45,982 bases of DNA from an uncultured Methanosarcinales archaeon (lineage in GTDB: Archaea; Nanobdellota; Nanobdellia; Woesearchaeales; CAYPCY01). The stretch's first letter is position 1; each line of letters starts with the position of its first letter. The notes under the pieces are model-generated. The model was not told the DNA's origin. It worked only from the letters and a program-made list of their open reading frames with translations, and did no database searches. The stretch is taken from the NCBI GenBank assembly GCA_964409385.1, contig CAYPCY010000004.1:1-45982 (forward strand), given 5' to 3'. The position numbers were made by a program, and so were the translations under genes. Below, piece after piece: positions 2,425 through 44,665 of the stretch.

Positions 2425-3835
2425 CGAATTAACAAAAAAAGGATATTTAGTAAGTCCTGAAATAATCATAGATTTAGAAAAAGTTGAAGCAATAGACATA
2501 GAACCAACAGAAAAATTAACCATTTTAACAAAAGAAATATTAAAAAAAACAAACATAAAATGGAAACAAGAACACACAAAAAACCCAGTAATAATAAAAA
2601 AAAACTACACAAAAATACAAGAAAAAAAAGACATGAATTCTTTCATAGAATACTATAATTCAAGATTCGCATATTTTGAAAACATTCTAAAAACAAGAAA
2701 CGAATTAAACAATCTAACATCAATCTCCAGAGCAAAAACATCCACTTCCCAAGAAATGTCCCTAATAGGAATGGTCTTAGAAAAACAAGAAACAAAAAAT
2801 AACAACATAATATTAACAATAGAAGACCAAAAAGAAAAAATAAAAATAATAATAGGGAAAAAAAACAGAGAATTACACGAAAAAGGAAAAGACATAGTAC
2901 TAGATGAAGTAATAGGAATAAAAGGAGTAACAGGAAAAAAAGTATTATTCGCAAAAGAAATAATCCTTCCAGAAGTACCAAATGAAGAAATAAAAAAAAC
3001 AACAGAAGACATACACCTAGCCTGTATAGGAGATATTCACTTCGGATCAAAACTTTTCATGAAAGAAGAATTCACAAAATTAATTTCTTGGTTTAGAGGA
3101 GAACAAGGAACAGAAGAACAAAAAAAACTAGCCGAAAAAACAAAATATATAGTACTAACAGGAGATATAATAGAAGGCGCAGGAATTTATCCAGGACAAG
3201 AAGAAGACCTAATACTCAAAAACCTAAAAGAACAATATAATTTAGCATATTATTATTTAAGTCAAATACCAAAAGATAAAAAAATAATAATTTTCCCAGG
3301 AAATCACGATTCAGGAAGATTAGCAGAACCACAAAATCCAATCTCAAAAGAATACGGAGAAAAACTATACGAACTAACAAACCTAACAAGTGTTTCAAAC
3401 CCCTCAACAGTAAACATAGCACAAACGAAAGATTTTGAAGGATTCGACCTCCTCCTATACCATGGATATTCATTCATACACTACTCAAACATAATAGAAA
3501 GAATAAGAGAAAAAGGAGGAATGGACAGAGCAGACCTAATAATGAAATTCTTACTGCAAAGAAGACATTTAGCGCCAGTCCACGAATCAAACCAATTCAT
3601 ACCCGACAAAGAATTTGATAATTTAATAATAGACATAATTCCAGACTTTTTCATAACAGGACACATACACAAAATGTCAATATCACAATATAAAAAAACA
3701 ACAATGATAAACGCATCTTGCTGGGCAAAACAATCAGAATTTCAAGAAAAAAACGGAGTCATACCACAACCAGCAAAATTACCACTTATAAATTTGAAAA
3801 CAAGAGAAGTAAAAGTACTAAATTTTGAAACATGA
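2402..3835 (+). CDS. polB: DNA polymerase D small (proofreading) subunit DP1
   Basis: OB fold followed by calcineurin-like phosphoesterase motifs GDIHFGS, GDIIEG, PGNHD, YHG, RRHLAP, TGHIH; lies between cdc6 and DP2. Confidence 0.95.
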   Translation: MTKQELINELTKKGYLVSPEIIIDLEKVEAIDIEPTEKLTILTKEILKKTNIKWKQEHTKNPVIIKKNYTKIQEKKDMNSFIEYYNSRFAYFENILKTRNELNNLTSISRAKTSTSQEMSLIGMVLEKQETKNNNIILTIEDQKEKIKIIIGKKNRELHEKGKDIVLDEVIGIKGVTGKKVLFAKEIILPEVPNEEIKKTTEDIHLACIGDIHFGSKLFMKEEFTKLISWFRGEQGTEEQKKLAEKTKYIVLTGDIIEGAGIYPGQEEDLILKNLKEQYNLAYYYLSQIPKDKKIIIFPGNHDSGRLAEPQNPISKEYGEKLYELTNLTSVSNPSTVNIAQTKDFEGFDLLLYHGYSFIHYSNIIERIREKGGMDRADLIMKFLLQRRHLAPVHESNQFIPDKEFDNLIIDIIPDFFITGHIHKMSISQYKKTTMINASCWAKQSEFQEKNGVIPQPAKLPLINLKTREVKVLNFET

Positions 3836-6800
3836 AAGAATACTTCAAAAAATTAGATAAGGATGCAAAACAAATATACCAAGTAGCAGTCCAAGCAAGA
3901 AAAAAAGGAATAGACCCAACAAGAACAGTAGAAATAACCCTTGCAAAAAATATGGCAGAAAGAGTTATTGGAATGATTTCAATAGTCGCGCCAGAAATTA
4001 AAAATTCGAAAGCGACAGAAAGAATAATAGACTTAGAAAAAGAACACGGAATTCTAGACTGGAAAGTTGCATTATTAATAGCCAAAGAAGTAGCTCAAGA
4101 AAAATTTTGCAAGTTCAAAAGTAAAAAAGAAGCAATAGAAATAGGAATAAGAACAGGATTCTCATATGTAACTGTAGGTGTTGTAAGTAGTCCATTAGAA
4201 GGATTCACAGGATTAGAAATAAAAAAAAGAAGAGACAACAAAGGAGAATACTTTTGTTTAAACTATGCAGGACCAATAAGAAATGCAGGAGGAACAGCAG
4301 CAGCAGTTTCAGCAATAATAGCAGATTACATAAGAAAAGAATTAGGATATTCAGAATATGACCCAACAGAAAAAGAAATAAAAAGATGTTATACAGAAAT
4401 AACAGATTATCACGAAAGAATAACCAACCTACAATATTTCCCCTCACAAAAAGAAACAGAATTTTTAATGAGTAATCTCCCAATAGAAATATCAGGAGAT
4501 GAAAGCGAAAAATTTGAAGTTAGTAATTATAAAGATCTTCCAAGAATAAGACAAAATAGATTAAGAAGTGGATATTGTTTAATGCACAGTTCATGCATCC
4601 CACTAAAAGCGCCAAAATTATGGAAACAACTAAATGATTGGGGCAAAGAATTCAACATGACCCACTGGAATTTCTTAGAAGAATTCATAAAAATACAAAA
4701 AGACTCACAAGCAAAAGGCGAAGAAAAAAAAGAAAAAATAAGTCCAAACCACACATACATAAAAGACATAGTTGCAGGAAGACCCGTAATAGGATATCCT
4801 ATGAGACCAGGAGGATTCCGACTAAGATATGGAAGAGGAAGATTTTCAGGATTTTCAGCACAAGCAATACATCCAGCAACAATGCAAGTCCTAGGAAATT
4901 TTGTGGCAACCGCAACACAATTAAAAGTTGAAAGACCAGGAAAAGCAGCAGCAATAACAGTTTGTGATAGCATAGATGGACCAATAGTAAAACTAAAAAA
5001 TGGAAGTGTAAAATTTTTAGAAACAGAAAAAATAGCAAAAGAATACAAAAAAGAAATTAAAGAAATATTATTCCTCGGAGATATTCTGATAAATTACGGA
5101 GATTTTCTCAACAGAGCACACGCACTAGTCCCCCCAGGATATTGTCCAGAATGGTGGATTCTAGAATTCGAAAAGAAAATAATAAACCTATTTGGAAATT
5201 TAGACTATGAAAAAACATCAGAAATAGTAAACATAGATGAAGAATCCTTAAAAATATTATTTCAAAAACCACTAAAAACAAAAATTTCTCCAAAAGCAGC
5301 ACTAAGAATATCATCAACGATGAACATCCCACTACATCCAAGATATACAAGATACTGGACACTAATAAACCTAACAGAACTAAAAAATTTAGTTGGGTGG
5401 TTATTAACAGGAAAACAAGAAGACGGAAAAATAATCCTTAACAATTCCGAAGACAAAAAAATATTGGAAAAAATAGGACTTCCACACAACCTAATAAATA
5501 AAGAAAAAATAATTATTGAAAAAAACCAAACATTAACAATATTAGCAACACTAGGCTGTTTAGAATTTGAAGATTTAGAAACAACCTTGAAAAAATTAAA
5601 AAAAGAACAAGAAGATAATATTCTGAAAATAATTAATAAACTTTCACTAATAGAAATAAGAGATAAAGCAGGAGTATTCATAGGTTCAAGAATGGGACGT
5701 CCAGAAAAGTCAAAAATGAGAAAAATGACAGGAAGCCCACACTCACTATTTCCAGTAGGAGAAGCAGGAGGAAGATTAAGAAGTTTTCAAGCAGCATTAG
5801 AAAAAGGACAAATAAAAACACCCATTTCAATATTTAACTGCAAAAAATGCGATGAAAAAACAGTATACTCCTCCTGTCCAGAATGCAATAATGAAACAGA
5901 AAGAATCTATTTTTGTAGTTCTTGCGGAGAAATAAACGAGAAAAAATGCAAAATACATGGAACAACAACACCATACAAAATAATAGATGTAGACATAAAA
6001 AAACACTTCAAACAAACCCTAAAATTATTAGGCGAAAAAGTTTATCCAGACTTAATAAAAGGAGTTAGAGGAACAACCAATGAAGAACACATACCAGAAC
6101 ATTTAAGCAAAGGAATCCTAAGAGCAAAACACAACATTTACGTAAATAAAGACGGAACAACCAGATATGATTGTTCAGAAGTTCCAATCACACATTTCAA
6201 ACCAAAAGAACTTTTTGTACCAATAGAAAAACTAAAAAAACTAGGTTATAAAAAAGACATAAACGGAAAAGAATTAGTACAAAACAATCAAATTTTAGAA
6301 TTAAAACCACAAGATATAATTCTACCTTGTCCAACAAACACAATAGACGAACCAGGTGATGAAGTCTTATTCAGAACAACAAAATTTTTGGACGAACTAC
6401 TAGTAAAAGCATACAAAATGAAACCATACTATAACTTAAAAACAAAAGAAGACCTTGTAGGACATTATGTTATAGGCCTGGCACCACACACATCAGCAGG
6501 AACACTAGCAAGAATAATAGGCTTTTCAAGAACTCAAGGTTTATTCGCACATCCACTACTACATGCAGCAATGAGGAGAGATTGCTTCACTTATGAGTCA
6601 AGAATACCAATAAAAAAAGGAAACAACTGGCGTTTAAGAAAAATAGGTTCTGTCGTTGAAGAATTAAATCCAACACAAATCGTAGATTCTTTCGAAACCA
6701 AAGAAATAAAGGTCAACAACTATAAAACTTTAGGAATAGTAGATGGAAAAGTGGAAGAAGTTGACATCAATAATTTTACAAAACATAAACCCCAAAAAAC

Positions 6801-8724
6801 AATACAAATAAAAACAAACTTAGGGAGGGAAATAGAAACAACAGAAGAACATAAACACATAACTAAAAATAATAAGATTATAAAAGCAAGAAACTTAAAA
6901 AAAGGATATTTGTTAAAAATCCCTTATAAAATAAAAATTAAGAAAAAAAACATCAAAAAAATTGATTTAATCGATTTATTTAAAGAAGAAGATTGGGGAA
7001 TGGTTCAAGGTTTAAAAAAAGAAGTTTCTGATTTTAAAAAAATACTCAAACAATACACACATAAAAACACCCACAATTATTATTCAAGAGATTCAACACC
7101 CATAAAAATAGCAAGTAAAATAATAAAAAAATACAAACTCGACAAGACAAAATTAACAATTAGTGCAAAAAGAGACAAAATCAAACTAAACCCAATAATT
7201 AAGGTAAATAAAAAATTCTTAAACATGTTGGGTTTGTATGTGGCCGAAGGATTTTCCAGGTGTAAACGAACAGGAAAAGGATACTATCAAGTTTATATTT
7301 CCGCAGAAAAAAAAGAAATCAGACGTTTCATAAAAAATCATTTTAAAACATTAGGCTTAAAACCAACAGAAAGAAAAACAGACAGGATAACATTCTCAAG
7401 TAGACTTCTTTACGAATTATTCATAAACAAGTTAAAAATGGGCTCGAACGCGCACGAAAAAAGAATGCCACAACAATTTTTAAACGCGACAAATAAACAA
7501 ATAGGCCATTTATTATCAGGATATCTGGAGGGAGATGGCTCGGTTTCAAAGACAGATCTCAGAATTTGTTTTGATACCGTCTCGAAAGGGCTTTTAAAAG
7601 ACATTGATTTCTTGTTTGCCCAACTACATATTTTTGTCAAAAACAAAACCTACACTAAACAACCCGGACAAAAATTAAAAGATTTTTATCTGAAAAAAAA
7701 CAAGCAAATTCCGGAATTCACAATAACTAAAGGAATTATACAAAGCAAGTTTGTTAAAAAAGCGAGCAAATACATTGTTTTTCTAAGTAGAAAAAAACAA
7801 AACATCTTAAATTATTTGGTCAGAAATAAAACTTTTCGAAATTTATTTCTTGAATATGACGATGAATTTTTCTTTGATGAAATAATTAGTGTAAAAACAG
7901 GAAGGAAAAAACCAAGTTATTGTCTGAATGTTCCTGGAAATAAGGTTGTTGTAAACAATATTTTAACAAAACAATGCGATGGTGATGAATCTTGTGTATT
8001 ATTACTACTAGACGCCTTCCTAAACTTTTCACAAAAATACTTGCCAAAAAAAAGAGGATCAACAATGGACGCACCAATAGTATTAACCTCAGCACTTAAT
8101 CCAGCAGAAGTAGACGATATGGTTTTTGACATGGACATAGCAACAAATTATAACTTAAACTTTTACAAAGCATGCAAAGAATACAAAATGCCATGGGACG
8201 TGAAAGTAGACAAAGTAGGAGATCATTTAGACGATGAAAAAAAATACAAAAATTACGGGTTCACCCACCCCACAGACAACATAAACGACGGCGTTCTTTG
8301 TAGTGTATACAAAACACTTCCAACAATGGAAGAAAAACTAAAAGGCCAAATGGAACTAGCAGAAAAAATAAGGGCAGTAGACACGTCAGGCGTTGCAAAA
8401 CTAGTAATAGAAAAACATTTTATAAAAGACATAAGAGGCAATTTAAGAAAGTTTTCACAACAACAATTCAGATGTGTAAAATGCAATGAAAAATTTCGAA
8501 GACCCCCCCTTTCAGGAATATGCACAAACTGCACAGGCAAAATAATTTTTACAATATCAGAAGGATCAGTAATAAAATATTTAGAACCTAGTTTAAGCCT
8601 AGCAAAAAATTACGAATTAGACGATTATATAATGCAAACATTAAACTTAACAAAACAAATGATAGAAGAAGTTTTTGGAAAAGACAAAGAAAAACAAGCA
8701 GGCCTGGGAGACTGGTTCGCATGA
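3832..8724 (+). CDS. polC: DNA polymerase D large subunit DP2 (intein-containing precursor)
   Basis: YAGPIRNAGGT, GFRLRYGR, GSRMGRPEK, GLAPHTSAG, RRD|CDGDE catalytic motif split by an intein, C-terminal Zn finger and PIP-like QAGLGDWF. Confidence 0.97.
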   Translation: MKEYFKKLDKDAKQIYQVAVQARKKGIDPTRTVEITLAKNMAERVIGMISIVAPEIKNSKATERIIDLEKEHGILDWKVALLIAKEVAQEKFCKFKSKKEAIEIGIRTGFSYVTVGVVSSPLEGFTGLEIKKRRDNKGEYFCLNYAGPIRNAGGTAAAVSAIIADYIRKELGYSEYDPTEKEIKRCYTEITDYHERITNLQYFPSQKETEFLMSNLPIEISGDESEKFEVSNYKDLPRIRQNRLRSGYCLMHSSCIPLKAPKLWKQLNDWGKEFNMTHWNFLEEFIKIQKDSQAKGEEKKEKISPNHTYIKDIVAGRPVIGYPMRPGGFRLRYGRGRFSGFSAQAIHPATMQVLGNFVATATQLKVERPGKAAAITVCDSIDGPIVKLKNGSVKFLETEKIAKEYKKEIKEILFLGDILINYGDFLNRAHALVPPGYCPEWWILEFEKKIINLFGNLDYEKTSEIVNIDEESLKILFQKPLKTKISPKAALRISSTMNIPLHPRYTRYWTLINLTELKNLVGWLLTGKQEDGKIILNNSEDKKILEKIGLPHNLINKEKIIIEKNQTLTILATLGCLEFEDLETTLKKLKKEQEDNILKIINKLSLIEIRDKAGVFIGSRMGRPEKSKMRKMTGSPHSLFPVGEAGGRLRSFQAALEKGQIKTPISIFNCKKCDEKTVYSSCPECNNETERIYFCSSCGEINEKKCKIHGTTTPYKIIDVDIKKHFKQTLKLLGEKVYPDLIKGVRGTTNEEHIPEHLSKGILRAKHNIYVNKDGTTRYDCSEVPITHFKPKELFVPIEKLKKLGYKKDINGKELVQNNQILELKPQDIILPCPTNTIDEPGDEVLFRTTKFLDELLVKAYKMKPYYNLKTKEDLVGHYVIGLAPHTSAGTLARIIGFSRTQGLFAHPLLHAAMRRDCFTYESRIPIKKGNNWRLRKIGSVVEELNPTQIVDSFETKEIKVNNYKTLGIVDGKVEEVDINNFTKHKPQKTIQIKTNLGREIETTEEHKHITKNNKIIKARNLKKGYLLKIPYKIKIKKKNIKKIDLIDLFKEEDWGMVQGLKKEVSDFKKILKQYTHKNTHNYYSRDSTPIKIASKIIKKYKLDKTKLTISAKRDKIKLNPIIKVNKKFLNMLGLYVAEGFSRCKRTGKGYYQVYISAEKKEIRRFIKNHFKTLGLKPTERKTDRITFSSRLLYELFINKLKMGSNAHEKRMPQQFLNATNKQIGHLLSGYLEGDGSVSKTDLRICFDTVSKGLLKDIDFLFAQLHIFVKNKTYTKQPGQKLKDFYLKKNKQIPEFTITKGIIQSKFVKKASKYIVFLSRKKQNILNYLVRNKTFRNLFLEYDDEFFFDEIISVKTGRKKPSYCLNVPGNKVVVNNILTKQCDGDESCVLLLLDAFLNFSQKYLPKKRGSTMDAPIVLTSALNPAEVDDMVFDMDIATNYNLNFYKACKEYKMPWDVKVDKVGDHLDDEKKYKNYGFTHPTDNINDGVLCSVYKTLPTMEEKLKGQMELAEKIRAVDTSGVAKLVIEKHFIKDIRGNLRKFSQQQFRCVKCNEKFRRPPLSGICTNCTGKIIFTISEGSVIKYLEPSLSLAKNYELDDYIMQTLNLTKQMIEEVFGKDKEKQAGLGDWFA
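6583..7974 (+). mobile_element. Intein with LAGLIDADG homing endonuclease in DP2 (464 aa)
   Basis: Starts CFTYES after AMRRD; block B TEEH; LAGLIDADG motifs LGLYVAEG and LSGYLEGDGS; ends NNILTKQ before extein CDGDE. Confidence 0.95.
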
Positions 8725-22155: not shown

Positions 22156-23163
22156 ATGGGAACAAAATTAACAGTTCTAGTAGAACCAAAAATTGTAAGT
22201 TATAATGATTTAAGAGGGAAAACATTCGCAGTTGATGCTCATAATGTTTTATACCAATTTTTGACGACAATAAGAAGTTATGATGGGAGTTATTTAACAG
22301 ATAAAAAAGGAAATATAACTAGTCACTTAATTGGTTTATTTAATAGATCTGTTGCGTTAATGGAACTAGGTTTGAAGTTATGTTTTGTTTTTGATGGGAA
22401 AGTTCCGGAATTAAAAAAAGAAGAAACCCTCAGGAGAAAAGAATTGAAAAATGTTGCTTTGAAAAAGTATGAATTAGCAGCTGCTGAAAAAAACATAGAG
22501 GAAATGAAAAAACAAGCGACAAGAACCACAAAATTAACTAAGGAAATGATTGGAGATGCTAAAGAATTAATAATTGCGTTAGGAATGCCAATAGTTGAAG
22601 CACCATCTGAGGGAGAAGCACAAGCTGCAAAAATGGTAAAAGAAAAAGAGGTTTATGCAGCAATTAGTCAAGATTATGATACTTTATTGTTTGGTTGTCC
22701 TAGAATGATAAAAAATTTAACAATAAGTAAAAAGAGAAAAATCCATGGAACTTATGCGATGAAAGAAGTTTTCCCTGAAATAATAGAATTAGGACAACTT
22801 TTGAATTCAACAGGATTAGACCAGGATAAGCTAATAGCATTAGGTATAATGACTGGAACAGATTATTGTAGGGAAGGTATAAAAGGAATAGGTCCTAAAA
22901 AAGCATTAAACTTACTAAAAAAAAATTCTGTAGAAGAAGCATTCTTAAAGGCTGGTTGGAATCAAAAAATAAAATGGGAAGATGTTTTTAAGTTAATAAA
23001 AGAAATGCCAACAAAATCTGTAAAAAATATAGGCTGGAAAAGTGTTAATGTTGAAAAAGTAAAAAAAATTCTTGTTGAGAGACACGATTTTGATGTAGAA
23101 AGAGTAGAAAAAACTCTTGAAAAGTTAAATGTTAATCAAAAAGGATTATCTGATTTCTTATAA
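22156..23163 (+). CDS. fen: Flap endonuclease 1
   Basis: AVDAHNVLYQFL, VFDG, APSEGEAQ, SQDYD, GTDY, GIGPKKA, C-terminal PIP box QKGLSDF. Confidence 0.97.
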   Translation: MGTKLTVLVEPKIVSYNDLRGKTFAVDAHNVLYQFLTTIRSYDGSYLTDKKGNITSHLIGLFNRSVALMELGLKLCFVFDGKVPELKKEETLRRKELKNVALKKYELAAAEKNIEEMKKQATRTTKLTKEMIGDAKELIIALGMPIVEAPSEGEAQAAKMVKEKEVYAAISQDYDTLLFGCPRMIKNLTISKKRKIHGTYAMKEVFPEIIELGQLLNSTGLDQDKLIALGIMTGTDYCREGIKGIGPKKALNLLKKNSVEEAFLKAGWNQKIKWEDVFKLIKEMPTKSVKNIGWKSVNVEKVKKILVERHDFDVERVEKTLEKLNVNQKGLSDFL

Positions 23164-23168
23164 AAATA

Positions 23169-23242
23169 GCCAGCACTCCTTAGTTACTTCCGCTAATCAC
23201 AGGCAGTGCCTCATTGGGTGTTCACCTAGTCATGGTGCTGGC
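23169..23242 (-). ncRNA. Box C/D-type 2'-O-methylation guide sRNA with non-canonical boxes
   Basis: 8-bp terminal stem GCCAGCAC/GUGCUGGC; K-turn from C=AUGACUA with D=AGGA; internal K-turn from D'=AUGA with C'=GUGAUUA; two ~12-nt guides; GC-rich island followed by a U-tract. Confidence 0.75.
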
Positions 23243-23273
23243 GAGAAAAAGAAATAAAGCAGAGATTAAAAAT

Positions 23274-23939
23274 TTAATCCCTATCAAGTCTACTCATAGT
23301 GTGTTCAAAAAAATGTGAAGAATCTCTAGGATCATCTCTGTAAGAGTCTTGCATTAAAATTTCCATAGGAAATTTATATGTTTCTTGTTCCATATCAAAT
23401 GGTGTTTGTTGTAGTTCTTCGTGTTCAAAAGATTTTTTAAAATAAATTATTTGTTCCTGGAGGTTCAATCTCTTATTTTCCTTGTAGAAATCAAAAAAAT
23501 CATTCACTAACGAAAAGGATTTTAGAAGTTTACTAATTTCAAATGCATGCATTAAATACAAATTATTGGAATGTGCTGTTTTTGAAAGATAGATTACTGT
23601 TTGTTTCCAATTTAATAAATTGTCTGAAGATTTTAAAACTTTGTAAGTTTCTAAATGGTCTTCAAGACTTAAAATTAGATCATTATTTTCTGTTGCTAAT
23701 TTGTTAGCAATACTATATGATTCAAAGAAAGTTTCTACTTCTTGAAAGTTAGGAAATTTGTCTGAAAAATAAGAAATTTCTTCTCTAGAAACTTCAGGAA
23801 ATTTTCGTCCTAATTCTCTAACTTGTTTTCCGAAATATGCTTCATTTGCAGAAGGAATAATTTCAAAATCAATAACTTCATCAACTGTTTTATTTTTCCA
23901 GTTTTTTTTACCTTCCTTTCTTCTTTTTCTTTCATTCAT
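23274..23939 (-). CDS. Hypothetical protein
   Basis: 221-aa ORF with SD AGGTAG upstream; no recognisable motif. Confidence 0.6.
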   Translation of the reverse strand: MNERKRRKEGKKNWKNKTVDEVIDFEIIPSANEAYFGKQVRELGRKFPEVSREEISYFSDKFPNFQEVETFFESYSIANKLATENNDLILSLEDHLETYKVLKSSDNLLNWKQTVIYLSKTAHSNNLYLMHAFEISKLLKSFSLVNDFFDFYKENKRLNLQEQIIYFKKSFEHEELQQTPFDMEQETYKFPMEILMQDSYRDDPRDSSHFFEHTMSRLDRD

Positions 23940-23976: not shown

Positions 23977-24969
23977 TTAAAGTTTTTTGAAATCATAACA
24001 AACCCTGAATTTTCTTGGCGCATTCTGTCCTGCTTTGATAGTTTGAATTAATTTAAGCTTTTTTCTTTCTAGTTTTTTCCCTGTTTTTTCAATTTCATCT
24101 TCTTCAACAAAATAATATAAATGAATAATTCCTTTTCTTTTCAAAACAGTTAAAGCAATATTTAAAAAAACAAGAGATTTACTTGGTAATGGCATAATTA
24201 TTCTATCAAATTTTTCTTTTAATTTAGGAACTTCTTTTGAAACATCGCCTCTTATTAACTCTACATTTTTTATTTTGTTAATTTTTAAATTTTCTAAACC
24301 ATATTTGTGTCCATGAGGATTTAGTTCTATACCAACAATTTTTTTGGCTTTACTATTTTTACTTAAAACACAAGGATAAGGACCACAACCAGAAAACATA
24401 ACAAGAATTTTTTCTCCTGGTTTCACAAGTTTTGAAATTCTTTTTCTTTCAGAACCTATTCTTGGAGAAAAATAAACTTTTTCAATATTAAATTTAAGTA
24501 AAACATTATTTTCTTTATATTTTGTTTCTTTTGTCTTTTTACCAGCTAAAAATTTATATTGTTGAAGCCTAAAAGTTCCACCATGACCACTTGATTTTTT
24601 AAGAACAGTCTTAACAACTTTATCTGTTTTTAATAATGCTTTGGCAATTTCATTTTCTTTTTTTTCTAGTTCTTTTGGAATTTCTAAAATAGCTATTTTT
24701 CCAATAACATCTCTTCCTGTCTTAAGAATATTTAATTCTTTTTTAGAAAGAATTTGTTTTAAAACATCCTCAAATCTTTCCTTTTTTATTTTTTTCTTAA
24801 ATTCTCTTTTAACAAAATTTCCTTTAAAGTTATTGCTTTTTTTTTTAATAGGAAATATAATTTTATATTTTGATTTAATAATCTTATATTCTTTTAAAAT
24901 TAAGCAATCCTCAAGAAGTTTTTTTCTTGTGGTTTCTGCCTCTTTGATTGAAACTTCTAATCCTAACAT
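23977..24969 (-). CDS. trm5: tRNA (guanine37-N1)-methyltransferase Trm5 family
   Basis: DVIGKIAIL, KVYFSPR, VMFSGCGPY, IELNP, FDRIIMPLP. Confidence 0.9.
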   Translation of the reverse strand: MLGLEVSIKEAETTRKKLLEDCLILKEYKIIKSKYKIIFPIKKKSNNFKGNFVKREFKKKIKKERFEDVLKQILSKKELNILKTGRDVIGKIAILEIPKELEKKENEIAKALLKTDKVVKTVLKKSSGHGGTFRLQQYKFLAGKKTKETKYKENNVLLKFNIEKVYFSPRIGSERKRISKLVKPGEKILVMFSGCGPYPCVLSKNSKAKKIVGIELNPHGHKYGLENLKINKIKNVELIRGDVSKEVPKLKEKFDRIIMPLPSKSLVFLNIALTVLKRKGIIHLYYFVEEDEIEKTGKKLERKKLKLIQTIKAGQNAPRKFRVCYDFKKL

Positions 24970-39017: not shown

Positions 39018-42000
39018 ATGAATAAAAGAGGCTTGTTATTATTATTAGTTCTGTTGTTAGTTAATGCTGTTTTTGGATTTGTAGATTATGCAGATAAATA
39101 TTCCTGTCATTCTAACGGAGGCTTGTTTTGTGATAATTTTGAAAGTAATAAATGTGCAATGATAGATGATTTAACAGATTCTTTAAACACTATTGATTGT
39201 AGAATTTCTAGTAATTATTATGTTGATGTTGATAATGGTTTAGGAAATAATATTCTTTATTTCAACAGATTAATTTTTGATTCTGGAGCTAGTATTCATT
39301 TTGTAGATTCTGGAGCTGGAGAAGGACTAATTGATTATGGATTTTATTGTGATACTGGAGATCAAATTTGTTATGGTGAAGGAGGAAATGGAGGGGATCA
39401 AGAAGATCATGGTGGTGATGGTGGAAAGGGAGGAACTGGTGGGATTTTAGGTTTTCATGGGGGTTCTGGTGCACATGGACAAAATTTTGATGAAGGTGGA
39501 GATGATGGTGATGGTTGTGATGAAGGTGGCGATGCAGGAGGAGGCACAGGTAATAAACCTTCAGGGGCTACAATTGGTATAATTGCTTTTCAGATTGAAA
39601 TTTCTGATGAAGTCACAATTTCTGTTGAGGGAGTTACTGGTGGCACTGGTGATAATGGTTGTATGGATACTGACGGATACAATGCTGGAAGTGGTGGTGG
39701 AGGTGGTGGAGGTGGTTCTGGCGCAGGAAAATTATTTGTTGTTGCGACTGAACTTGTTGGTGATCAGCAAGGAATAAACAGTGCTTTGAACCTGGTTGCA
39801 AAAGGAGGTAAAGGAGGAGCTGGCGGTGATGGAGAAGATGGTCCTTGGAATAATGAAGGTGGTGGTGGGGGTGGTGGAGGTGGTGGTGAAGGAGGGAAAG
39901 TATATTTTTCTGTAGAAACTTCAGAAGTAACTCATTCTTTGATTGTGAACGAAGGTGCAGGCGGAGGGGGTGGTAACGGATATAGCAACGCTATTAATGG
40001 TGGAACTGGCGAAGGTGGTCCTAGTGGAGAAGCATTCGGTCCTGGTGAATGGGAACTTTCAGAATTAGAAGGTGCGTTTGGAGTTAGTATTAAAGAAAAT
40101 TATTTTGGAAGTCCTTATTTTGTTTGTAATGATGGAATAGATAATGATGGTGATGGAAATACAGATATGGCTGATGAAGATTGTTATGAAACTTCCGCAA
40201 ATGAATTAGGTTGGGAAACAGAAGCTCATAATTTAGCAGCTGATTGGTTTGATGCTTCTTCAAATACTGGAGCGGATGGTGTTTGTGGAGATGATGCAGG
40301 AGATGCTAGTTGTATAGGTTCTTTATATTGTCCTTCAATTCCAAATGATGAATGTGGGGATTTTGAGGGGTGTTCATTAACGGGGGGAGCAACAAGTTGT
40401 GATTCTTTATGGAATGATGAATTTGATTGTTTGAGCCAGGAAGGTTGTTCATGGGAATGGCAAGATTCTTACTGTAGTGGTTTCTTATGGAGTGATTCAG
40501 TATGTGCAGTTTTTGGTTCTGATCTTTGTGGTTTACCTGTTTGTTTGTGGATTTCTGGTCATAATGATTGTGTGGGAACTGCTAATTCTTGTGAGGATAA
40601 TGTTAATCAGATAGGTTGTGAATGTACAGGTAGTCCATCATGCGATTCTTTTGATAATTGTTATGATGAGTATGGTTGTAATTATATTAATGAAGGAGAT
40701 GATTTTGCTTATGTCGATCCAAACGGAACTTACTTTTGTAATTATAGAGATACAGATGATGATGACTCTCCAGAATGGACTTGGGAAAACTCGCAAGTTT
40801 CTCCTTCAGGGACTACTTTTAATATAAATGATCACAAAGAGCATATAATAACAAATTCTCAAAAGTGGTTTGTTTGTGATGCTAATTCTTCAACATCACT
40901 GACTTATTTTAATGGAACAATTTATGATTCTATGATTGAAGAGTTTGGAACCTTTACTGATCCTTCAGGGTTGCATTTTAACATGAAAACTTGTTTGGAT
41001 GCTCTTCATGAATTAACAGAATTTGAAAGTTTTGGATATTGTGAAGATTTATATGGTGATAGTTATGATTATGCTTCTTGTTGTGAAAAAGCCGCGTTTT
41101 TTTCAGTTGATGATCCGGATGGATTTGAGAGTGTTTGTAGTGGTTTTTGTTTTGATGTTTTAGGAGATACTTTAGCAACATCTTCAGAATTTGGTCAAGA
41201 TTTATGTGATTTTGAACAATTTAGCAGTTTACTTTATTGTACAGAAAATGAAGTTGGTTTAGACGCTAATTCTGTTCTTTTAGAATTATGTGGTTTTGAT
41301 CTTGCAGGTTGTTTAAGTCAAACATTAGATCCTTTTATTTCTTGTGAAGAGCAAGGATTTAGTTCCTTTGATATTTGTAGTGAAGAAAAACCTATATGTT
41401 CTGGAGCTTTGATTTATTCTATTGAGGAAGGTAGTTCAGATCCAGAACAGACATGTTGTGTTAGTAATTCTGAAGAAGTTACTTGTTCAGACTCTTCGAG
41501 TATAATAGATGAGGATTCTTGTTTGAATAATGAAGGCACAGTATATGATATTAATGACGGGTATTGTTCTCCACCAGCATTTGCAATAACCTTGCCTAGT
41601 GGAGATTCTTGTTGTTTTGGAACTTATGTTCCTTCACTAGATTTATATCAAACTGAAAGTGCGGATAAATTTATTTGTTATAAAGGAAATTTGGACACTA
41701 CTGGAAATAATTTAATTGCAGAATGTTGTTTTGATGATTATTGTTTAAATAATCAAGAGTTAATATTTGGAACTGATCGTAATTTCAGAGGACCAGGTTC
41801 TGATCTTCATGAAATTTCCAAATTCGACTTGTTTGATGCTACTACAGGCCAATTTCAGAATTACGGGAAACGATTGAAGACAAACAATGCTCAAACAGGA
41901 CTGATTATTAGTTCAGCTAATTTAAGAACCACGAATTGGGAAGGATTCAATATTTTAGAATTTGATGTTGGTTTTAATAGTGCAGATTATTTTGAAATTT

Positions 42001-42242
42001 ACTTAACTGATTCTAATGGAGAGCATTCTCTTGGAAAATTAAGTAATTATTTAGTAACAGGATCTCAACCTTACAGATGGCAGAAAGCAATGATTATTCT
42101 TCCTTTAACAGATGGTTCTGTAAGTATTGATTATTCATCAATTGAAAACATAAAGATTATGCCAACTCATTTACCTGGTGATTACTTGGCTCAAATAATC
42201 ATCGATGATTTTTCACTTTCTAGAATGGAGGTGTTAGAATGA
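39018..42242 (+). CDS. Large secreted acidic Gly/Cys-rich surface protein
   Basis: Signal peptide; GGxGG-rich segment; CNDGIDNDGDGNTDMADEDC Ca-binding-like motif; CxW repeats; C-terminal CBM-like beta-sandwich. Confidence 0.85.
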   Translation: MNKRGLLLLLVLLLVNAVFGFVDYADKYSCHSNGGLFCDNFESNKCAMIDDLTDSLNTIDCRISSNYYVDVDNGLGNNILYFNRLIFDSGASIHFVDSGAGEGLIDYGFYCDTGDQICYGEGGNGGDQEDHGGDGGKGGTGGILGFHGGSGAHGQNFDEGGDDGDGCDEGGDAGGGTGNKPSGATIGIIAFQIEISDEVTISVEGVTGGTGDNGCMDTDGYNAGSGGGGGGGGSGAGKLFVVATELVGDQQGINSALNLVAKGGKGGAGGDGEDGPWNNEGGGGGGGGGGEGGKVYFSVETSEVTHSLIVNEGAGGGGGNGYSNAINGGTGEGGPSGEAFGPGEWELSELEGAFGVSIKENYFGSPYFVCNDGIDNDGDGNTDMADEDCYETSANELGWETEAHNLAADWFDASSNTGADGVCGDDAGDASCIGSLYCPSIPNDECGDFEGCSLTGGATSCDSLWNDEFDCLSQEGCSWEWQDSYCSGFLWSDSVCAVFGSDLCGLPVCLWISGHNDCVGTANSCEDNVNQIGCECTGSPSCDSFDNCYDEYGCNYINEGDDFAYVDPNGTYFCNYRDTDDDDSPEWTWENSQVSPSGTTFNINDHKEHIITNSQKWFVCDANSSTSLTYFNGTIYDSMIEEFGTFTDPSGLHFNMKTCLDALHELTEFESFGYCEDLYGDSYDYASCCEKAAFFSVDDPDGFESVCSGFCFDVLGDTLATSSEFGQDLCDFEQFSSLLYCTENEVGLDANSVLLELCGFDLAGCLSQTLDPFISCEEQGFSSFDICSEEKPICSGALIYSIEEGSSDPEQTCCVSNSEEVTCSDSSSIIDEDSCLNNEGTVYDINDGYCSPPAFAITLPSGDSCCFGTYVPSLDLYQTESADKFICYKGNLDTTGNNLIAECCFDDYCLNNQELIFGTDRNFRGPGSDLHEISKFDLFDATTGQFQNYGKRLKTNNAQTGLIISSANLRTTNWEGFNILEFDVGFNSADYFEIYLTDSNGEHSLGKLSNYLVTGSQPYRWQKAMIILPLTDGSVSIDYSSIENIKIMPTHLPGDYLAQIIIDDFSLSRMEVLE

Positions 42243-44665
42243 GAATACTTCTTTTCTTGTTTGTAGTATTAATGGTTTCTTTTGTAATTGCTGCTGAAGA
42301 GCCAGATTGTAATTGTGATCTCGGATCTAACTCTTGCGGGTCTGGATTTGTTTGTAATTATGATAATAATTGTGATGTTGGAATTGGAACTTGTACTCAG
42401 TCTTCAGGAAGTCAATGTGATCCTGCTTCTGAATGTTGTAATACTGTTGGTTATTATCAAGAACAAGGAACTCATTGTGATATTATAGGAAGTTATGTTT
42501 GTGGAGTTGAAGATTCTGATATTCCAGGAGGGGTTCTTCAAGGGAGTGGTTGTGGTAATGATGTTTTTTGGAAGTATAAATATAAGACTTGTAATTCAGT
42601 AGGGCAATGTGTTGGTTCTTATTCAGAATGGGAGTTTAGTTTTTCTCAATCTTGTCCGAGTAGTTCTTTTTGTGATGCTGAAATAACTAGTTGTGTTTCA
42701 GGAAGTTCAATTCAAGAAATAGAATGTAATAATATAGATGAGAATTGTAATGGGATGGTTGATGATACTTTAAGTGTTGGTCAAGTATGTGGGGAAACAA
42801 CAAATGTTGGAGAGTGTTCTACAGGAATTAATGAGTGTAGTGGTAGTTCTTTAACTTGTGTTGGTGATGTTTATGCTTCAGATTCTGATTCTTGTGGTGA
42901 TGGTATAGATACTAATTGTGACGGTACTGATGGTTTTCTAGAAACTTGTGATGGTATAGATAATGATTGTGATGGTAGTGTTGATGAAGGACTTACTGGA
43001 ACAGATAATTTAGTTAATGCACTTGGTGATTGTGTAGCTGTTGAAACTACTTGTTATGATGGTAATTATGGTTATGATACTGAATTGTATTCAGAACCTT
43101 CAACTGAGGAAGTTTGTTATGATGGTATAGATAATAATTGTGTTGGGGGTATTGATGAAGGTTGTGACTTTAGTTTAATTACAGATGATTATACAGGACA
43201 GGTTCCTTCTGATAATAGATATTGTACTGGATCTTATGGTGGTTATTGGATTGATGATTTGAATCCTGCTGCAGATACTGATTTTGAAGACTTTACTCAG
43301 TATGGCCAGTATAAGTTTGCTTGTGAAGCTCAAGGAAGTTTTTACTGGAGTGGAAAGAAATGTTGTGGTAGTAATACTAAATTCTATTATGATACTACTG
43401 AAACTACAGGAACTAACGGTTCAATAATTTTATTTAAGGAATACTTTGCTGATGATCTTGCGGGTTGTTTTAGGGGAAAGCCAGTACCTAATGATTGGAC
43501 TGTTGGAAAGGCAGTAAATAATGAAATGTATGATGATTTGTTATTCTTTAATTCTTCATTTATTGGTTGTGATACTGAAGGAAAATATTCTAGTTTGAAT
43601 GTTCAGTATCATCCAAATAATGTTTTGGAATCTGATTTAGTTACTGAAGAGGTTGACTCTTCTGCAATTCGTGGAAATTGGGCTTGTATTGGTAATGAGT
43701 GGAGGGCTTTTGATGACATTCCAAAAATTAGAATAATAGCAGGGGCATTGATTAAAGAAGTTGAAGATCAAGATTATTACTTGTTCTGTGATGATGAGAA
43801 TGAGTATGTAGTTTCTGATTATACAGAAGCATATTCTGGTTTAATGCAGAATGGATCTTGCCTGATGAATATTTTAGATTCTGATGTTACGGCTTTCGGA
43901 TTTGGATTTGAAGAGTATGTTGACTTTCAAGAAATAATGGAATTAATGGGCTTGGATACTTCTGTTTGTGATAATGTTGATGAAGGTAGTGATTCAGATC
44001 ATAAGTTCTTTTCAAAATGTTCAGATGGTGATTTAACTGTGTTCATAAGGAAAGACTTTGGCGTTGGAGTTGTTGCAAATGGTGATATTACACCTCAAGA
44101 CTTCTTCCTAGTAGATATGTGGAAGGCATTTGTTGGATTTATTAAAGGAATATTATCTTCTTTAGGGTTTGATGTTGGAGGAGTTACTGAATATGATGTT
44201 CCTCTGACGGGAGTTATTACAATACTTGGAGAGACGGGAGGGAAGACTCCAGATAATTACAACAAATTCTATTCTGCAAAGGTAGGAATTAATAACATAA
44301 GTGCTTATTCCTTTAAAGCGGAAGGTTTGAATGATGATGGAGAATATAATTATGATGTTTATGCAACTTATGGAGTGTTAGAAGACCTTTGCGAATCAGC
44401 AATACAAGATTGTACTTATGAATGTGGTGTTGCAAGGGTTGAAATAACTTCAACTTATGATGCTAGAGTATTATGGCAGGATTTAACGAGTAAGACAAGA
44501 CTGCAAGAAGTTGGAAGTTATATTTTAGGATGTACAGATTCAGAAGCTAGTAATTATGATGTTGATGCTACTATTGATGATTGTAGTTGTGATTATCCTA
44601 CTAGTGGAGGGCCAGGAGAAGATGTTCCTGATGATTTTTCACAAGGTGGAATGGGACCTTCATAA
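42239..44665 (+). CDS. Secreted Cys-rich protein with repeated CDGIDNDCDG metal-binding motifs
   Basis: Signal peptide; four C(N/G/D/Y)..IDxNC/DC repeats; C-terminal GCTDSEASNYD..ATIDDCSC; ATGA overlap with upstream gene. Confidence 0.85.
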   Translation: MRILLFLFVVLMVSFVIAAEEPDCNCDLGSNSCGSGFVCNYDNNCDVGIGTCTQSSGSQCDPASECCNTVGYYQEQGTHCDIIGSYVCGVEDSDIPGGVLQGSGCGNDVFWKYKYKTCNSVGQCVGSYSEWEFSFSQSCPSSSFCDAEITSCVSGSSIQEIECNNIDENCNGMVDDTLSVGQVCGETTNVGECSTGINECSGSSLTCVGDVYASDSDSCGDGIDTNCDGTDGFLETCDGIDNDCDGSVDEGLTGTDNLVNALGDCVAVETTCYDGNYGYDTELYSEPSTEEVCYDGIDNNCVGGIDEGCDFSLITDDYTGQVPSDNRYCTGSYGGYWIDDLNPAADTDFEDFTQYGQYKFACEAQGSFYWSGKKCCGSNTKFYYDTTETTGTNGSIILFKEYFADDLAGCFRGKPVPNDWTVGKAVNNEMYDDLLFFNSSFIGCDTEGKYSSLNVQYHPNNVLESDLVTEEVDSSAIRGNWACIGNEWRAFDDIPKIRIIAGALIKEVEDQDYYLFCDDENEYVVSDYTEAYSGLMQNGSCLMNILDSDVTAFGFGFEEYVDFQEIMELMGLDTSVCDNVDEGSDSDHKFFSKCSDGDLTVFIRKDFGVGVVANGDITPQDFFLVDMWKAFVGFIKGILSSLGFDVGGVTEYDVPLTGVITILGETGGKTPDNYNKFYSAKVGINNISAYSFKAEGLNDDGEYNYDVYATYGVLEDLCESAIQDCTYECGVARVEITSTYDARVLWQDLTSKTRLQEVGSYILGCTDSEASNYDVDATIDDCSCDYPTSGGPGEDVPDDFSQGGMGPS

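Follow-up and report, generated by a model that had tools for sequence, protein, structure and literature searches.

A conserved box C/D sRNA with relaxed boxes is predicted to guide A-loop methylation in place of RlmE in Woesearchaeales

Modification of the 23S rRNA A-loop has been reviewed (PMC7994747), and PMC2584109 notes that Um2552 is made by RlmE in E. coli and Haloferax and through snR52 in yeast, where snR52/Spb1 (25S Um2921; cytoplasmic snR52) provide a precedent for RNA-guided 2'-O-methylation of the U2552 equivalent. RlmE (RrmJ/FtsJ) has the same predicted product as the sRNA described here, but it is a stand-alone, protein-only enzyme without a guide, and it is absent from the host genome. 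The yeast system differs in being a eukaryotic snoRNP, and snR52 uses its other guide on 18S rRNA, not on a second 23S-like site.

According to Dennis et al. 2015 (PMC4644070), guide-directed methylation of the first A-loop nucleotide is already predicted in five of seven archaea, so RNA-guided Um2552 in archaea is not a new idea. The closest described RNA is NeqsR10 of Nanoarchaeum equitans, whose D' guide is listed as AGUGAACACCC (PMC4644070, supplement file 1, row 256). Judged from that entry, it resembles our sRNA in being a box C/D sRNA of a reduced DPANN genome and in having AGUGAACACCC followed by one nucleotide and then the D' box, i.e., the same guide core in the same register; a D' guide of this type (GUGAACACCC, U2552 register) is present in our sRNA. 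It differs in its canonical GUGAUGA/CUGA boxes, its other D guide, and the lack of a long terminal stem. The second guide is not shared, and ~11 nt would be too short a stretch on which to decide orthology. NeqsR10 reportedly stems from work by Randau in 2012. More generally, the C-guide-D'-loop-C'-guide-D layout, ~12-nt spacers, N+5 rule, and L7Ae/Nop5/fibrillarin machinery are those of the C/D sRNAs of Pyrococcus, Sulfolobus, and Pyrobaculum. In contrast to these, the family described below keeps RUGA and GA alone in its C and D boxes, C positions 5-6 and D positions 2-1 covary as Watson-Crick pairs, and C'/D' is more canonical than C/D; our sRNA also has an 8-bp GC-rich stem and one guide predicted to pair through a bulge.

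The stretch of DNA that we analyzed (hereafter the window; 45,982 nt) is contig C4 of a 797,906-bp, 15-contig assembly with 30% GC. It carries archaeal genes such as those for MCM, PAN, a tRNA-splicing endonuclease, and an intein-containing PolD DP2, and the host is a DPANN archaeon of the Woesearchaeota type with a genome of 0.8 Mb. A preliminary description, made from the letters of this DNA, had proposed a non-canonical box C/D guide RNA in it. Our direct read of the minus strand agrees with its sequence string and anatomy letter for letter: the element spans 74 nt from stem end to stem end (Table 1) and reads GCCAGCAC-C-AUGACUA-GGUGAACACCCA-AUGA-GGCACUGCCU-GUGAUUA-GCGGAAGUAACUA-AGGA-GUGCUGGC, with UAUUUUUAU downstream. 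The terminal stem comprises 8 bp and is GC-rich, a single unpaired C separates its 5' arm from the C box, and the internal D' and C' boxes together with two guide spacers of ~12 nt (12 nt for D' and 13 nt for D) are as expected of a C/D sRNA.

Table 1. Features of the sRNA locus, in positions of the window
Feature	Position	Strand	Basis or remark
Whole box C/D sRNA, 74 nt	23169..23242	-	direct read and match of covariance model R1
Terminal stem, 5' arm GCCAGCAC	23235..23242	-	pairs with 23169-23176
C box AUGACUA	23227..23233	-	differs from RUGAUGA at positions 5 and 6
D' guide GGUGAACACCCA, 12 nt	23215..23226	-	position 5 upstream of D' is A
D' box AUGA	23211..23214	-	direct read
Internal hairpin GGC-ACU-GCC plus U, from D' to C' (GGCACUGCCU)	23201..23210	-	three covarying pairs
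C' box GUGAUUA	23194..23200	-	direct read
D guide GCGGAAGUAACUA, 13 nt	23181..23193	-	position 5 upstream of D is A
D box AGGA	23177..23180	-	consensus CUGA
Terminal stem, 3' arm GUGCUGGC	23169..23176	-	pairing and covariation on 32 homologs
U-rich tail UAUUUUUAU	23160..23168	-	direct read
A/T box UUAAAUUUUUAAU, ~35-23 nt before the sRNA begins	23265..23277	-	sequence read only
Trm5b-type tRNA methyltransferase gene	23977..24969	-	conserved upstream neighbour of the sRNA

All four boxes of the window copy retain their UGA/GA cores. The C box agrees with RUGAUGA at five of seven positions (RUGA and the last A) and the D box with CUGA at two of four (GA alone), and neither passes a strict consensus. 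The sequence nevertheless allows a kink-turn layout (stem, 3-nt bulge, tandem sheared G.A, and two further pairs) for C/D and C'/D' alike, in which C5-D2 is C-G, C6-D1 is U-A, C'5-D'2 is U.U, and C'6-D'1 is U-A.

The sRNA lies in a 110-nt gap between the convergent genes FEN1 (22156-23163, plus strand) and an ORF of 221 aa (23274-23939, minus strand), upstream of which Trm5b and PAN are found on the same strand. Among the relatives, the sRNA is mostly directly downstream of Trm5 and adjoins PAN (tblastn; Trm5 in 18 and PAN in 16 of 25 loci). The 221-aa ORF, which in the window stands between Trm5 and the sRNA, has no Pfam or NCBIfam match, and tblastn found no homolog of it in these 25 loci. 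The U-rich tail is likely an archaeal oligo-T termination signal; the consensus of the 3' flank in the alignment of 32 homologs is CTTTTTTT. Upstream, UUAAAUUUUUAAU overlaps the stop codon of the 221-aa ORF and might be a putative archaeal TATA element, a weak suggestion in a genome of 30% GC; co-transcription with that ORF and Trm5 is equally possible. A scan for bacterial-style terminators found none at the locus, and such a scan, which looks for sigma-70 promoters and intrinsic terminators, is uninformative for an archaeal host. Minimum free energy folding was unremarkable (z = -1.26, not significant), as expected for C/D guides, since these must stay single-stranded.

By blastn, further families of the same order also proved to carry the element. 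We aligned 32 homologous copies (alignment A1), which served as the basis of the covariance model R1; the window copy, itself part of this training set, is matched at 23162-23249 on the minus strand with 86.6 bits. Of 151 sampled members of the order, the model matched 130 (100 of 115 when only high-quality genomes were considered); it also matched six genomes labelled 'same class'. Conservation across relatives, for which a covariance model had been suggested at the outset, is thus borne out. Because a sister sRNA type accounts for some of the low-scoring R1 matches (those in G014, G028, and G096, plus the second one in G016), the exact dual-guide motif (GTGAACACC..GTAACT) was counted separately; it occurs in 118 of the 151 genomes, one of which (G135) looks like a chance match, vs 5 matches for a reversed-pattern control. 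Two unpublished genomes, G131 and/or G111, are part of all counts for the order sample (R1, RlmE, A-loop, and motif).

The compensatory C/D and C'/D' changes that had been read from this one copy prove to be real covariation among the 32 homologs. Standard pairs fill 84.5% of the pair cells in A1 vs 60.1% in shuffled alignments (0 of 500 shuffles reached the observed value), and a control in which partners were slid along the alignment left 24-50% of cells paired. Double changes occur at 14 of 14 tested pairs, i.e., throughout the terminal stem (8/8) and the internal hairpin (3/3, with 90.8% of cells paired) among others. Of particular relevance to the boxes, C6-D1 is standard in 28 of 32 homologs (UA 16, CG 6, GC 6, other 4) and D'1-C'6 in all 31 cells (CG 15, AU 8, UA 6, GC 2); C5-D2 is divided between 16 standard cells (Watson-Crick or G.U) and 16 that are U.U-like or otherwise non-standard. 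Within the guides, GUGA-CACC (D') and GUAACU (D) are invariant in all 32 homologs. Collectively, these data confirm that the element is a genuine box C/D sRNA of archaeal type and that it is conserved.

Rfam returned no match at gathering score over the window, and its two matches at E <= 10 over 23100-23320 are due to chance. We found no description of this sRNA family in the literature searched, which covered sources other than subscription journals; the family is undescribed, and its kind (archaeal box C/D sRNA) is already known.

Box statistics were obtained for the 77 of 120 independent loci that could be parsed, the other 43 including bacterial chance matches and members without D'/C' boxes. 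Both RUGAUGA and CUGA occur in only five of the 77, and relaxed boxes are therefore the family norm. The D box is CUGA in 23 members and ends in GA in 75, whereas 39 members have CUGA as D' and 71 have a D' with terminal GA; 23 have AUGAUGA as C', which varies after UGA in the others. C'/D' is accordingly more canonical than C/D, which is unusual. The combination in the window (CU at C5C6 with AG at D1D2) recurs in six members, and the D spacer measures 13 nt in 77/77, the parsing pattern itself having required GGAAGUAACU. The box consensus of the family can be written RUGAnnn / nnGA, with C positions 5-6 pairing with D positions 2-1, and these comparisons identify the relaxed boxes as a family trait, not decay. 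The preliminary description spoke of drifted boxes that standard scanners would probably miss; the lack of an Rfam match fits this expectation, but the term 'drifted' is misleading. Rfam and consensus scanners miss the family because only the UGA/GA box cores are conserved. Some members, namely L072 (G003), L077 (G049), L086 (G048), and those of G097, G130, and G136, have no recognisable D'/C' boxes at all: a plain hairpin joins their two guides, both of which are intact (e.g., ...ACACC-AGUGCC...GGCAGA-CGGAAG).

The complement of the D' guide, GGGUGUUCAC, is the 23S A-loop of the relatives, where it is exact in 17 of 20 LSU loci; the remaining three have AGG... (two loci) or GGGGGUUCAC (one locus). 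Across the order, the A-loop was assembled in 94 of the 151 genomes, with GGGUGUUCAC exact in 84 (a hand count) and U at the first loop position in 92. Guide positions 2-12 would pair over 11 bp with the relatives' A-loop GGGUGUUCACC, an extent above the threshold of at least 8 bp. One variable nucleotide separates ...ACACC(C/A) from nnGA throughout the family, and this constant spacing sets guide position 5 (A) opposite the first U of UGUUC, in keeping with the complementarity and +5 assignment first made for the window copy. We take this U to be E. coli U2552, by our own counting from the landmarks D2449 and A2451; the numbering agrees with the 105-nt offset from GGGGAUAAC to GGGUGUUC in 14 of 20 LSU loci. 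Since the host assembly contains neither LSU nor SSU rRNA, we infer the fit of the guide to the host's own A-loop from the 23S rRNA of its relatives.

Six of the 20 LSU genes (L042, L047, L050, L053, L057, and L059) have 31-91 extra nt between the GGGGAUAACAG site and the A-loop, giving offsets of 136-196 instead of 105; these additions to domain V could be insertions or introns. The guide also resembles helix 69 in antisense (AGUUACUCCCGC, on the wrong strand), which we judged coincidental.

Profile searches showed that the host encodes the three core proteins that a guide of this kind presupposes: fibrillarin (245 bits) and Nop5 (140 + 21 bits) by neighbouring genes of contig C5, and L7Ae (99 bits) by a gene of contig C6. 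As to RlmE, the other protein singled out for a check, TIGR00438 has no match in the host genome, and a weak Pfam FtsJ match (26 bits) was rejected because the protein is an RsmB/F m5C methyltransferase (187 bits). The function proposed for the sRNA would explain why the host keeps fibrillarin, Nop5, and L7Ae without RlmE. R1 finds just one copy of the sRNA in the host genome at E <= 10. Two crude box-plus-stem scans gave no convincing further C/D sRNA there, scans weak enough that absence is not implied.

We then compared the distribution of the sRNA with that of RlmE. Full-length RlmE (threshold E <= 1e-15) was found in 10 of the 151 genomes, including the unpublished G111. The dual-guide motif is present in 1 of these 10 and in 117 of the 141 genomes without RlmE (Fisher p = 3.7e-6, an indicative value that overstates the case since it ignores kinship of the genomes). 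Eight of the 10 RlmE genomes have no R1 match; G096 has only the sister sRNA, which is without the A-loop guide, and G083 carries the A-loop sRNA too. Conversely, the exact motif is missing in 24 of the 141 genomes that do not have RlmE. In a 20-taxon LSU tree, G002 is sister to G013 (support 98) and G045 falls elsewhere, together with the sRNA-bearing G031 and G059 (support 99), so there are at least two separate lineages with RlmE and no sRNA. RlmE and the sRNA are nearly mutually exclusive in the order.

The preliminary description had left the target of the D guide open, with rRNA and tRNA as places to look. We have identified 23S AGUUACUCCG as its predicted target, paired through a 1-nt bulge in the guide (AGUAACU:AGUUACU, one bulged guide nucleotide, CGG:CCG). 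RNAduplex gave 5'-AAAAGUUACUCCGG as the best duplex in all four operon loci that bear an LSU gene, at -12.4 kcal/mol in three of them and -9.8 in G018, with runners-up at -9.0 to -10.8. The site is kept in 18 of 20 LSU loci, and the two exceptions, G002 and G013, are also without the sRNA. Against LSU AGUUACUCCGG the guide forms 7 + 3 bp, or 9-11 bp in bulge-free variants. In a hand count of 117 genomes, a gap-free complement (GGAGUAACU, at least 9 bp) occurs in nine, and the other forms are GGAAG (65), GGUAG (10), GGAUG (13), GGAAAG (4), GGAAAAG (1), and others (15); the extra nucleotides (A, U, AA, or AAA) vary solely at the predicted bulge, and GUAACU never varies. In another order, G199 has GUAGCU in the guide and AGCUAC in the rRNA, its LSU reading AAAAGCUACUCCGGGG; the D site was assembled in one of the five genomes searched in that order. 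Together with the bulge-free variants and with the sister sRNAs, which have canonical boxes and use the same D guide, this co-change of guide and rRNA supports the target assignment. Guide position 5 falls on the second U of AGUU, presumably ~U2438 of E. coli on the 3' strand of helix 74. The bulged duplex (7 + 3 bp) and the 13-nt spacer could lower or abolish methylation at this predicted site.

Other candidate targets were set aside. The perfect 11-mer complement of the D guide found essentially only the sRNA gene itself in 61 genomes, the closed genome G016 has no complement besides its two sRNA genes, and wobble-tolerant patterns revealed no perfect target, with counts close to those of reversed-pattern controls. 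A 12-nt match in the host (C1:168777) is antisense inside a protein gene and was treated as chance. tRNAs were rejected, the best of 21 ARAGORN tRNAs pairing at only 9 of 12 positions with gaps, as was SSU rRNA, in which no site lies within 1 mismatch in the G059, G034, and G018 loci and the best duplex is only -9.1 kcal/mol in the one locus (G059) scanned with RNAduplex.

The sister sRNA type (e.g., G016 L080, G014 L082, and G096 L225) has the same D guide, (A)CGGA(A)GUAACU, but it has canonical AUGAUGA/CUGA boxes and a D' guide complementary to CCGGGGAUAACA, not to the A-loop. By our own counting, N+5 within CCGGGGAUAACA falls on the third G, which we take to be ~G2446 of E. coli. Further copies are found at L234 (G025) and L244 (G051), ~150 nt from the A-loop sRNA in G051; R1 at E <= 10 revealed none in the host genome.

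Two families of relatives depart from U at position 2552. The A-loop was assembled in 19 genomes of family f43, and every one of them shows a non-U nucleotide there, G in 10 (including the unpublished G256) and A in nine; one of them, G257, carries a U-type A-loop copy as well; RlmE was found in 0 of the 31 genomes of this family. Family f114 has G in both genomes searched (G113 and G171). Examples of such variant A-loops are G042:C34:32721-32749 (f43) and G113:C4:1085-1113 (f114). The guide pattern matched 11 of the 31 f43 genomes, of which G212 was dropped for having neither C'/D boxes nor a stem. The homologs thus comprise nine inspected loci (eight new ones and that of G042) and the match in G256, which is counted uninspected; nine of the 10 read GUGAAUCCCA, and G257 reads GUGAAUUCC. 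In G042, G191, G254, and G259, as well as in the unpublished G256, guide position 5 carries a C that faces G2552, and in G257 it carries a U that faces A2552. The strict guide pattern recovered no sRNA in 5 of 10 G-type and 8 of 9 A-type f43 genomes, and in G113 a U at position 5 opposite G gives a wobble only.

Taken as a whole, the comparative evidence indicates that the element is very probably a functional dual-guide archaeal box C/D sRNA, whose RNP is predicted to replace RlmE and to methylate U2552 and ~U2438. L7Ae would bind two kink-turns, that of C/D next to the 8-bp terminal stem and that of C'/D' next to the internal hairpin, and Nop5-fibrillarin would assemble on both. The boxes would need to keep just the UGA/GA cores that form tandem G.A, the next two kink-turn pairs being any Watson-Crick pair. 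The 12-nt D' guide is expected to open 23S helix 92 through its 11-bp pairing with GGGUGUUCACC, placing the first A-loop U (E. coli U2552) opposite position 5 for 2'-O-methylation. The 13-nt D guide would pair with 23S 5'-AGUUACU-CCG, one guide nucleotide being bulged, and bring the second U of AGUU (~U2438) to position 5, at a site that lies ~114 nt upstream and adjoins the peptidyl-transferase loop. The RNP would, in this lineage, stand in for the protein enzyme RlmE.

Other explanations of the same element deserve consideration. The RNA may form a real C/D-type RNP that acts mainly as an rRNA-folding chaperone, keeping helix 92 and the strand of helix 74 together while domain V assembles, and that fails to methylate one site (in all likelihood the bulged D site) or both. 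Both targets do lie in domain V, ~105-114 nt apart, the D duplex is bulged and has a 13-nt spacer, and PMC4644070 proposes chaperone roles for dual guides. We nonetheless consider this unlikely: the near-exclusion with RlmE speaks for the A-loop methyl group as the very thing that the RNA provides, the base at guide position 5 follows the one at 2552, and GA cores are retained in all four boxes.

It is also very improbable that the window copy is a decaying, non-functional relic whose boxes have moved too far from RUGAUGA/CUGA. Its C box (AUGACUA) and D box (AGGA) would suggest as much, and it would escape both Rfam and a consensus search, but non-canonical boxes are the norm in this family (5/77 canonical, with the window combination in 6/77), the box changes are compensatory, both guides are intact, and this single copy (R1, E <= 10) has no RlmE as back-up. 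That the locus is a mere terminator or 3'-UTR hairpin of convergent genes, or an L7Ae-binding regulator of the Trm5 operon, in either case with no guide function, is scarcely credible. A terminator has no need of two single-stranded segments of 10-12 nt that are invariant across >100 genomes, of complementarity to two conserved 23S sites, or of four UGA/GA motifs at C/D spacing, even if a GC-rich stem of 8 bp with a U-run after it, set between convergent genes, looks like one and the position directly downstream of Trm5 in many relatives would suit an operon element.

Returning to the reading of the element as a dual-guide sRNA that replaces RlmE, our analysis assigns a predicted function to an unannotated intergenic element and defines a guide RNA family in most sampled Woesearchaeales, with an alignment and a model that can be used for annotation. 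The family would offer a natural example of replacement between protein and RNA-guided routes to a highly conserved rRNA modification, and the survey indicates lineages in which nucleotide 2552 changed along with the guide. Tentatively, and with somewhat less than an even chance of being right, we suggest that in Woesearchaeales A-loop methylation has been wholly taken over by one ultra-conserved, relaxed-box C/D sRNA in place of RlmE, and that this takeover loosened the identity of U2552, nearly universal elsewhere, because a guide RNA can follow its target. The window sRNA would then represent the ancestral state of a guide/target pair co-evolving in the core of the peptidyl-transferase centre, and it may even be the sole C/D sRNA served by the three-protein machinery of this 0.8-Mb genome.

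Elsewhere in the window, positions 39018-44665 (plus strand) hold two large ORFs with strong positive GC skew, one of 1074 aa with no Pfam match and one of 808 aa with MopE-type metal-binding motifs only. At 3832-8724 (plus strand), DP2 of DNA polymerase D is encoded by an ORF of 1630 aa that is interrupted by a LAGLIDADG-domain intein.
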